In this document: positions 63,747 through 64,000 of the stretch, in pieces | Layout: every line of letters starts with the position of its first letter | How positions within the stretch are numbered: the first letter of the stretch is position 1 | Origin: Escherichia coli | Lineage (GTDB): Bacteria; Pseudomonadota; Gammaproteobacteria; Enterobacterales; Enterobacteriaceae | NCBI RefSeq assembly: GCF_003334305.1 | Contig: NZ_QOWS01000001.1 | DNA: 64,000 nucleotides | Reading direction: 5' to 3' (one strand) | Position numbers and translations under genes: made by a program | The notes under the pieces: generated by a model | Database searches by the model: none | What the model was told of the DNA's origin: nothing | What the model saw: the letters and a program-made list of their open reading frames with translations, nothing else

Positions 63747-63766
63747 TACTGTATATAAAAACAGTG
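63747..63766 (+). promoter_or_regulatory. LexA (SOS) box upstream of sbmC
   Basis: TACTGTATATAAAAACAGTG matches the CTGT-N8-ACAG consensus; 15 bp before the sbmC ATG. Confidence 0.8.
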
Positions 63767-63780
63767 TTAATGGAGGCGTC

Positions 63781-64000
63781 ATGAACTACGAGATTAAGCA
63801 GGAAGAGAAACGTACCGTTGCAGGTTTCCATCTCGTTGGCCCGTGGGAACAGACGGTAAAGAAAGGCTTTGAGCAGTTGATGATGTGGGTAGATAGCAAA
63901 AATATTGTGCCGAAGGAGTGGGTTGCTGTCTATTACGACAATCCAGATGAAACACCCGCCGAAAAATTACGCTGCGACACCGTCGTGACGGTGCCGGGTT
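63781..64000 (+). CDS. sbmC: DNA gyrase inhibitor SbmC/GyrI, N-terminal part (3' end cut by window edge)
   Basis: ATG at 63781; translation [36 protein letters not shown]... recognised; absent from ORF track because no stop lies in the window. Confidence 0.85.

Follow-up and report, generated by a model that had tools for sequence, protein, structure and literature searches.

A near-consensus LexA box, the probable operator of sbmC (gyrI), in a non-K-12 allele common in Escherichia coli

The spacer between dacD and sbmC in Escherichia coli carries a 20-bp palindrome that resembles a LexA (SOS) box, which raises the questions of whether this palindrome is the operator of sbmC, how it would act on the sbmC promoter, and whether the allele found here behaves as that of K-12. 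We analysed this spacer within a stretch of 64,000 nucleotides, hereafter the window, which is the E. coli his-gnd-sbcB-sbmC region. Our reading, in which we have high confidence, is that the palindrome is the LexA operator of the E. coli sbmC (gyrI) promoter and that repression probably takes place by promoter occlusion. The sbmC operator is an already known feature, present here in a common non-K-12 allele. The coordinates of the features are collected in Table 1.

Table 1. Features of the sbmC promoter region, of the remaining window and of interrupted loci in other strains (window positions unless marked as locus coordinates)
Feature	Position	Strand	Basis or remark
LexA (SOS) box TACTGTATATAAAAACAGTG	63747..63766		unique, HI 4.2, positionally conserved; K-12 allele published
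Putative −10 element CTATACT (TATACT with C at −13, sigma-S-like)	63744..63750	+	read from sequence; hexamer conservation and CRP spacing
Predicted transcription start region	63755..63760	+	likeliest A at 63757, within the LexA box
Weak −35-like element TTGTGG	63724..63729	+	conserved TTGTGG/TTTGCC block
CRP-S-type CRP site	63688..63709		cores TGCGA (63691-63695) and TCGCA (63702-63706); centre 63698.5
Shine-Dalgarno sequence GGAGG	63772..63776	+	4 nt before ATG; kept in nearly all orthologous loci
sbmC (gyrI), 5′ part, DNA gyrase inhibitor gene	63781..64000	+	73 complete codons, then window end; full length 157 aa
dacD, D-Ala-D-Ala carboxypeptidase, upstream neighbour	62496..63662	+	ORF list and RefSeq annotation (strain M8, K-12)
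sbcB, upstream neighbour	60860-62359	−	
algC RNA, before the 472-aa ORF of the colanic acid cluster	13754-13803	+	Rfam gathering score
JUMPstart	24737-24775	+	Rfam gathering score
His operon leader	54898-55021	−	Rfam gathering score
STnc240, enterobacterial sRNA	57760-57834	+	Rfam gathering score
ISL3-family insertion in the box, locus L010	2520-2545 and 3855-3885		locus coordinates
ISL3-family insertion in the box, locus L011	2520-2545 and 4420-4450		locus coordinates
ISCro1 (IS66 family) of NCCP 15734, locus L092	899-2503		locus coordinates

The box occurs once in the 64-kb window, on the plus strand, and in none of the shuffled sequences, and it was the sole match in the window to the idealised palindrome TACTG(TA)5CAGTA when up to three mismatches were allowed. 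Of its three mismatches to this palindrome, two fall within the AT spacer, which is tolerant, and the third is at outer position 20, every base of both CTGT/ACAG cores being intact; the description of the site as near-consensus in the original prediction was therefore fair. The CTGT-N8-ACAG core CTGTATATAAAAACAG (63749-63764), which is the inverted repeat of the gammaproteobacterial LexA box, is likewise the sole instance in 64 kb. We scored the site with a Lewis-type heterology index (HI), using a symmetrised matrix of 15 published K-12 LexA boxes (PMC3009722 Table 4) from which the sbmC box was excluded to avoid circularity; values of this index are not directly comparable with published HI values, since the matrix differs from the original Lewis 1994 matrix. 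Relative to a cut-off of about 12-15 for functional LexA sites, the window box, with its HI of 4.2, lies far below the limit and is better than the recA (6.05), sulA (5.85) and lexA (7.2) operators on the same matrix, while the K-12 sbmC allele reached 2.2. The next best site in the window had an HI of 11.45, and the matrix scoring suggested together with the original prediction thus did not return a poor match. From the exact score distribution at the base composition of the window, the probability of an HI of 4.2 or below is 2.4e-9 per position, corresponding to about 1.5e-4 sites expected per 64 kb. Three further LexA-like sites, at 32909 (the runner-up), 34785 (HI 11.65) and 23399 (HI 13.04), were dismissed as chance level, with 0.27 sites expected at an HI of 11.45 or below.

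The gene downstream of the box is that of the gyrase inhibitor, as had been stated. Residues 1-73 of SbmC, which are encoded in the window, show 100% identity with SbmC/GyrI of E. coli K-12, and this fragment matched NCBIfam NF007451 'DNA gyrase inhibitor SbmC' over profile positions 1-72 with 137.8 bits, falling short of the curated cut-off of 179 bits only through truncation at the window end. The complete SbmC of strain M8, a strain 100% identical to the window over 63600-64000 (401 bases), scored 299.2 bits and hence passed at full length, and full-length M8/K-12 SbmC matched PDB 1JYH over its whole length (E 1.2e-109). The locus is present in 5418 of the 5426 complete E. coli genomes, where it is annotated in RefSeq as dacD followed by sbmC. 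Inhibition of gyrase by SbmC/GyrI does not produce double-strand breaks, and the protein confers protection from microcin B17, CcdB and mitomycin C (PMC10886550). Between the end of the box and the sbmC ATG there are 14 nt, and the ATG is found 118 nt after the dacD stop codon; the placement of the box immediately upstream of sbmC was thus correct, except that the start codon is at 63781 and not at 63782.

SOS induction of sbmC, with which the box had been connected, is published for K-12. First described by Baquero et al. in 1995 (as cited in PMC5999292), sbmC is included in the SOS regulon list (PMC6590174), is induced by UV (PMC3009722) and by ciprofloxacin (PMC11002266), and, with an HI of 2.8 by Courcelle, is induced 5.7-fold by AZT, its expression being 9.5-fold lower in lexA3 and so dependent on cleavable LexA (PMC11228462). 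The K-12 site TACTGTATATAAAAACAGTA was the top LexA motif hit of MEME among the UV-induced genes (PMC3009722 Table 4). In Salmonella, the LexA box of sbmC has an HI of 6.32 and nalidixic acid induces the gene 3.55-fold (PMC8072944); it was assigned to expression group III, the 'high ON' subpopulation of which was lost in lexA(Ind-) (PMC8072944, Figure 7 legend). The kinetics of the sbmC promoter were described as atypical and biphasic, and the promoter was without a sigma-70 prediction (Culyba et al., PMC5999292); because of these two properties, LexA is not regarded as the sole controller of sbmC. The window site agrees with the LexA-box family in all its sequence properties (core repeat, fit to the consensus, conservation among orthologues), its overlap with the promoter being predicted; binding and induction are documented for the reference allele only.

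Compared with named boxes, the window box shares 19 of 20 bases with the K-12 sbmC/gyrI box, which is found at the same locus and at the same distance to the ATG, next to a CRP-S site, a Shine-Dalgarno sequence and an SbmC N-terminus identical to those of the window. The K-12 box differs in A20, where the window has G20, and in two nearby SNPs (HI 2.2 versus 4.2 on our matrix). The K-12 umuDC (umuD) operator is identical to the K-12 sbmC box, and the window box is thus one base off it as well (PMC3009722 Table 4). This umuDC operator is among the tightest LexA operators listed, but it serves another gene (translesion polymerase V) in another promoter context, and induction by AZT was 56-fold for umuDC compared with 5.7-fold for sbmC (PMC11228462); the modest induction of sbmC is consistent with a weaker, co-activator-dependent promoter. 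Although the 20-bp boxes of the two K-12 genes are identical, the HI table of Courcelle 2001 gives 2.1 for umuD and 2.8 for sbmC (PMC11228462 Table 1), and the published index therefore reflects more than these 20 bases, or another site definition.

Based on a species scan with K-12 SbmC against species-representative genomes, we obtained 80 loci from Escherichia, Citrobacter, Salmonella, Enterobacter, Lelliottia, Kluyvera, Klebsiella, Raoultella, Atlantibacter, Pseudocitrobacter, Leclercia, Siccibacter and others, and determined for each of them which 20-mer within the upstream 200 bp was the most LexA-like, with 397 equal-length stretches of the same loci as controls. A LexA-like box was detected 14-24 nt 5′ of the sbmC ATG in 78 of the 80 species, with a median HI of 5.7, and the conservation claimed for the box thus extends, as regards its position, over the Enterobacteriaceae. 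An HI of 8 or below was found at 60 of the 80 loci but at none of the 397 controls (control median 22.2, minimum 14.5), indicating conservation among orthologues. No box near the ATG was seen in Klebsiella michiganensis DSM 25444, where this part of the sequence is GC-rich (best HI 23.5), or in Intestinirhabdus alba, where a LexA-like palindrome is located 166 nt upstream and is followed by GC-rich sequence.

Within the 78 boxes, TG at positions 4-5 and CAG at positions 16-18 are invariant. At position 3, only 42 boxes keep the left-hand C; in the other 36 of the 78 orthologues it is replaced, by G in 25 (the Enterobacter type TAGTG) and by A in 11. LexA affinity may be lower in the genera with a replaced left C, which weakens the claim of universal conservation. 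The comparative data indicate that positions 1, 3 and 20 of the box are free to vary and that TG at 4-5 and CAG at 16-18 are not. The sbmC boxes of Salmonella, Citrobacter and Enterobacter lie 15-16 nt before the ATG and have the same upstream CRP site; many of them carry G20, as in CACTGTATATAAATACAGTG, position 1 is often C, and the Salmonella gene is SOS-inducible by experiment (PMC8072944). In Enterobacter and Lelliottia, the left arm is TAGTG in place of TACTG, with which the overlapping −10 sequence reads TATAGT.

The position-20 difference raises the question of whether the operator of the window is equivalent to that of K-12. In addition to G20, the window has TTAATGG just 3′ of the box, where K-12 has TCAATGG, and AATATTG just 5′ of it, where K-12 has AATTTTG, the differences from K-12 being located at 63766-63768 and 63737. 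Among the 5426 complete E. coli genomes, the exact 41-mer 63755-63795 was found in 851 and the exact 71-mer 63720-63790 in 770, compared with 645 for the K-12 71-mer; these counts refer to exact haplotypes, not to allele frequencies at position 20. In nine uninterrupted E. coli upstream regions (the window and eight genomes, with eight distinct sequences), base pairs 1-19 of the box are invariant in all nine, and variation is seen at position 20, at the next three bases and at three positions just before the box.

One could argue from these differences that the operator is partly disabled, G20 and the neighbouring SNPs weakening the binding of LexA and leaving sbmC leaky or less SOS-dependent than in K-12. 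On our matrix G20 costs 2.0 HI units, G being present in just 2 of 30 symmetrised observations, and the allele is common, as seen from the 41-mer count. However, even with this cost the box scores better than the recA, sulA and lexA operators, both cores are intact, known boxes are least conserved at their outer positions, and G20 is found in 31 of the 78 orthologous boxes (A in 40), often paired with C1. Since 31 of the 78 orthologous boxes carry it, G20 is an evolutionarily tolerated state. We consider a partly disabled operator unlikely: weakening by G20 is itself possible, but a large effect is unlikely, and from these comparisons we infer that the G20 allele behaves like the A20 allele of K-12. 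A broader, tentative and rather doubtful idea is that G20 and the adjacent SNPs, which at least 16% of the complete E. coli genomes possess, could be part of an allelic series tuning LexA affinity, the extreme of which would be the roughly 5% of genomes with the box split by an ISL3-family element in the AT spacer and with sbmC uncoupled from both SOS and CRP-S. If true, such a series would tune the basal SbmC level and the tolerance to gyrase poisons (microcin B17, quinolones).

Besides the LexA box, the promoter region contains a CRP site of the CRP-S type, centred 48 nt before the box. The sequence TGCGAGTCTGCTCGCA at 63691-63706 is a perfect TGCGA-N6-TCGCA (spacer GTCTGC) with the C6/G17 palindrome of CRP-S sites, and the site is identical in sequence to that of K-12 sbmC. 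For K-12 sbmC, a CRP-S-like site with 6-fold induction by Sxy, an absolute need for CRP and cAMP, and a class I mechanism have been reported (Cameron and Redfield, PMC1635313). The TGCGA-N6-TCGCA core is common to this site and to the CRP-S promoters of the E. coli competence regulon (ppdD, yrfD/hofM); in contrast to these, sbmC is no DNA-uptake gene, and its promoter additionally holds a LexA operator. A related CRP site at a fixed distance was detected in 72 of the 80 species, the right half-site being the canonical TCACA in most other genera, and the distance from its centre to the box is 51 nt in 30 species and 48-52 nt in 56. In 16 species of Klebsiella, Raoultella, Pseudocitrobacter and relatives, the CRP centre is only 35-37 nt before the box, compared with 48-52 nt, and a −10-like hexamer lies just 5′ of the box; in Klebsiella, Raoultella and Pseudocitrobacter, the CRP site reads TGTGA-N6-GCACA and the left arm of the box is degenerate. 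This spacing suggests a class II arrangement of CRP in the clade of Klebsiella, Raoultella and Pseudocitrobacter.

To what extent the box coincides with the promoter depends on the positions of the −10 element and the transcription start. When 76 distinct upstream regions of orthologues were aligned on the box, three conserved blocks appeared, namely, TTA directly 5′ of the box, TTGTGG/TTTGCC about 20-25 nt upstream, and GCTC(A/G)CATAAT about 40 nt upstream, the last of which is the right half of the CRP site. A TAnnnT hexamer (TATACT, TACACT, TATAGT etc.) is present at box positions −2 to +4 in 57 of the 78 orthologous regions. In the window, this hexamer forms part of CTATACT, the final four bases of which are the first four of the LexA box, and which we take to be a sigma-S-type extended −10 element or sigma-S consensus (Weber 2005; Typas 2007). 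With a start 7 nt after the TAnnnT hexamer, CRP is at −61.5 for the most frequent spacing and at −58.5 for that of E. coli; position 63757 is 7 nt after the −10 element, and a start at 63760 would be expected from a class I CRP position of −61.5. On a K-12 tiling array, the UV-induced transcript of sbmC begins 100 nt after AGGCCTGACC (PMC3009722 Table 8), a 5′ end that maps to window position 63755 with a resolution of about 7 nt. Because the hexamer position, the CRP spacing and the tiling-array 5′ end agree, we place the −10 hexamer at 63745-63750 and the start near 63757.

Several observations count against this start: the CRP centre of E. coli is at −58.5, the canonical position being −61.5, and the −35 element is poor, with a spacer of 15 nt. 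The spacer from TTGTGG to the −10 element is 17-18 nt in Citrobacter and Enterobacter, compared with 15 nt in E. coli. A sigma-70 consensus scan of 63400-64000 gave no plus-strand promoter at the box, and a literature search found no mapped transcription start of sbmC. Two alternative −10 sequences inside the box, TATATA (63752-63757) and TATAAA (63754-63759), were rejected: they would place CRP at −65.5 and −67.5, respectively, off the class I phasing, and have neither an extended −10 TG nor a usable −35. With the placement given above, the LexA box would overlap both the putative −10 element and the predicted transcription start. The original prediction of an overlap with the likely sbmC promoter is supported to this extent, the exact −10 element and start being our own assignments. 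Its view of the box as a conserved housekeeping feature held for the conservation, but the promoter does not resemble a plain housekeeping sigma-70 promoter, having a poor −35, a sigma-S-like −10 and a CRP-S/Sxy site. The sbmC promoter is a clean example of three inputs within about 80 bp: LexA, CRP-S/Sxy and a sigma-S-like −10 element.

In conjunction with these positions, the following mode of action is proposed. In the undamaged cell, a dimer of LexA would occupy the two CTG/CAG half-sites of the box. The left half-site would overlap the −10 element and the AT spacer would hold the start, and bound LexA would cover the downstream part of the −10 element, the start and the first 10 or so transcribed bases. 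RNA polymerase would then form no open complex on this promoter. Such occlusion would follow from the LexA box covering the −10 element and the start, and the mechanism is as probable as the assignment of these two elements. Upon DNA damage, RecA would be activated, LexA would cleave itself and the operator would be vacated; transcription of the derepressed sbmC gene would yield an mRNA with a short leader of some 24 nt, GGAGG/ATG would serve for its translation, and SbmC would bind gyrase and shield the cell from gyrase poisons. The basal strength of the promoter would be set separately by the CRP-S site (CRP and Sxy), as well as by sigma-S and H-NS according to the literature.

Alternatively, LexA could act as a roadblock to transcription from CTGGCA-18-CATAAT (63681-63710), in which case the start would lie near 63717 and the box at about +30 to +50. 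This pair of hexamers was the sole sigma-70-like match on the plus strand of the spacer between dacD and sbmC, and its CATAAT block is strongly conserved across genera. However, the conserved block coincides with one half of the CRP-S site, the right one (TCGCA/TCACA and its flank), which accounts for the conservation, and the CTGGCA sequence starts only 19 nt after the dacD stop codon. The published class I CRP promoter also requires a start about 60 nt 3′ of the CRP centre, that is, within the box (PMC1635313), and the tiling-array 5′ end lies at about 63755 (PMC3009722). As it coincides with the CRP-S site, CTGGCA-18-CATAAT was rejected as the main promoter, and we regard the roadblock as very unlikely compared with occlusion of a promoter within the box.

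The palindrome might instead mainly control a promoter on the minus strand, TTAACA-16-TATAGT (63770 to 63743), giving antisense RNA against the 3′ end of dacD. The sequence matches the sigma-70 consensus at 10 of 12 positions with the LexA box exactly in its spacer, and the corresponding sequences read TTGATA-16-TATAGT in K-12 and TTGATA-16-CATAAT in E. albertii. The argument for it, however, is a consensus match in an AT-rich palindrome, where symmetry yields such matches; the promoter is not conserved in other Escherichia clades or in other genera, no transcript evidence for it was found, and it would be compatible with control of sbmC in any case. We therefore hold this reading to be very improbable. 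A chance palindrome without any regulatory role, for which the AT-richness of intergenic DNA is the one argument, has practically no probability left, with about 1.5e-4 such sites expected per window, the position of the box kept in 78 of 80 species against 0 of 397 controls, and the genetics of the K-12 allele published (PMC11228462), so that chance origin is refuted by conservation and genetics together. The LexA operator of sbmC being a textbook-level member of the SOS regulon, its confirmation here mainly validates the first reading from sequence.

Interruptions of the same box were observed in other E. coli strains. In ETEC1718, the box is split into TACTGTATATAAAA and ATATAAAAACAGTA by ISKox3, with an 8-bp target duplication, ATATAAAA, that corresponds to the AT spacer of the box. 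In TK3888, ISEc53 with a ClbS/DfsB passenger gene is inserted at the same place in the box. A 48-mer query for the ISL3 junction matched 275 of the 5426 genomes, with 194 of the matches covering at least 80% of the query; the matches listed include SYNB1934, presumably a derivative of Nissle 1917. In NCCP 15734, about 30 nt separate the end of ISCro1 from the sbmC ATG. The match to the window is not regained until 63779, and the LexA/CRP-S promoter region is thus displaced as a whole. Insertions in the sbmC box could affect strain differences in tolerance to gyrase poisons, a matter separate from the window itself.

Elsewhere in the window, the colanic acid cluster is present, and two polysaccharide clusters flank gnd, ugd and wzzB. 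The first, at 24786-30498, comprises six genes, including those of GT2 glycosyltransferases, and lies between galF (with JUMPstart) and gnd. The second, from wzzB to hisI at 35702-47782, contains manC, manB, wzm-like and wzt-like ABC-transporter genes and three GT4 glycosyltransferases, one of them of 1213 aa, and presumably resembles an O8/O9 polymannan O-antigen cluster.
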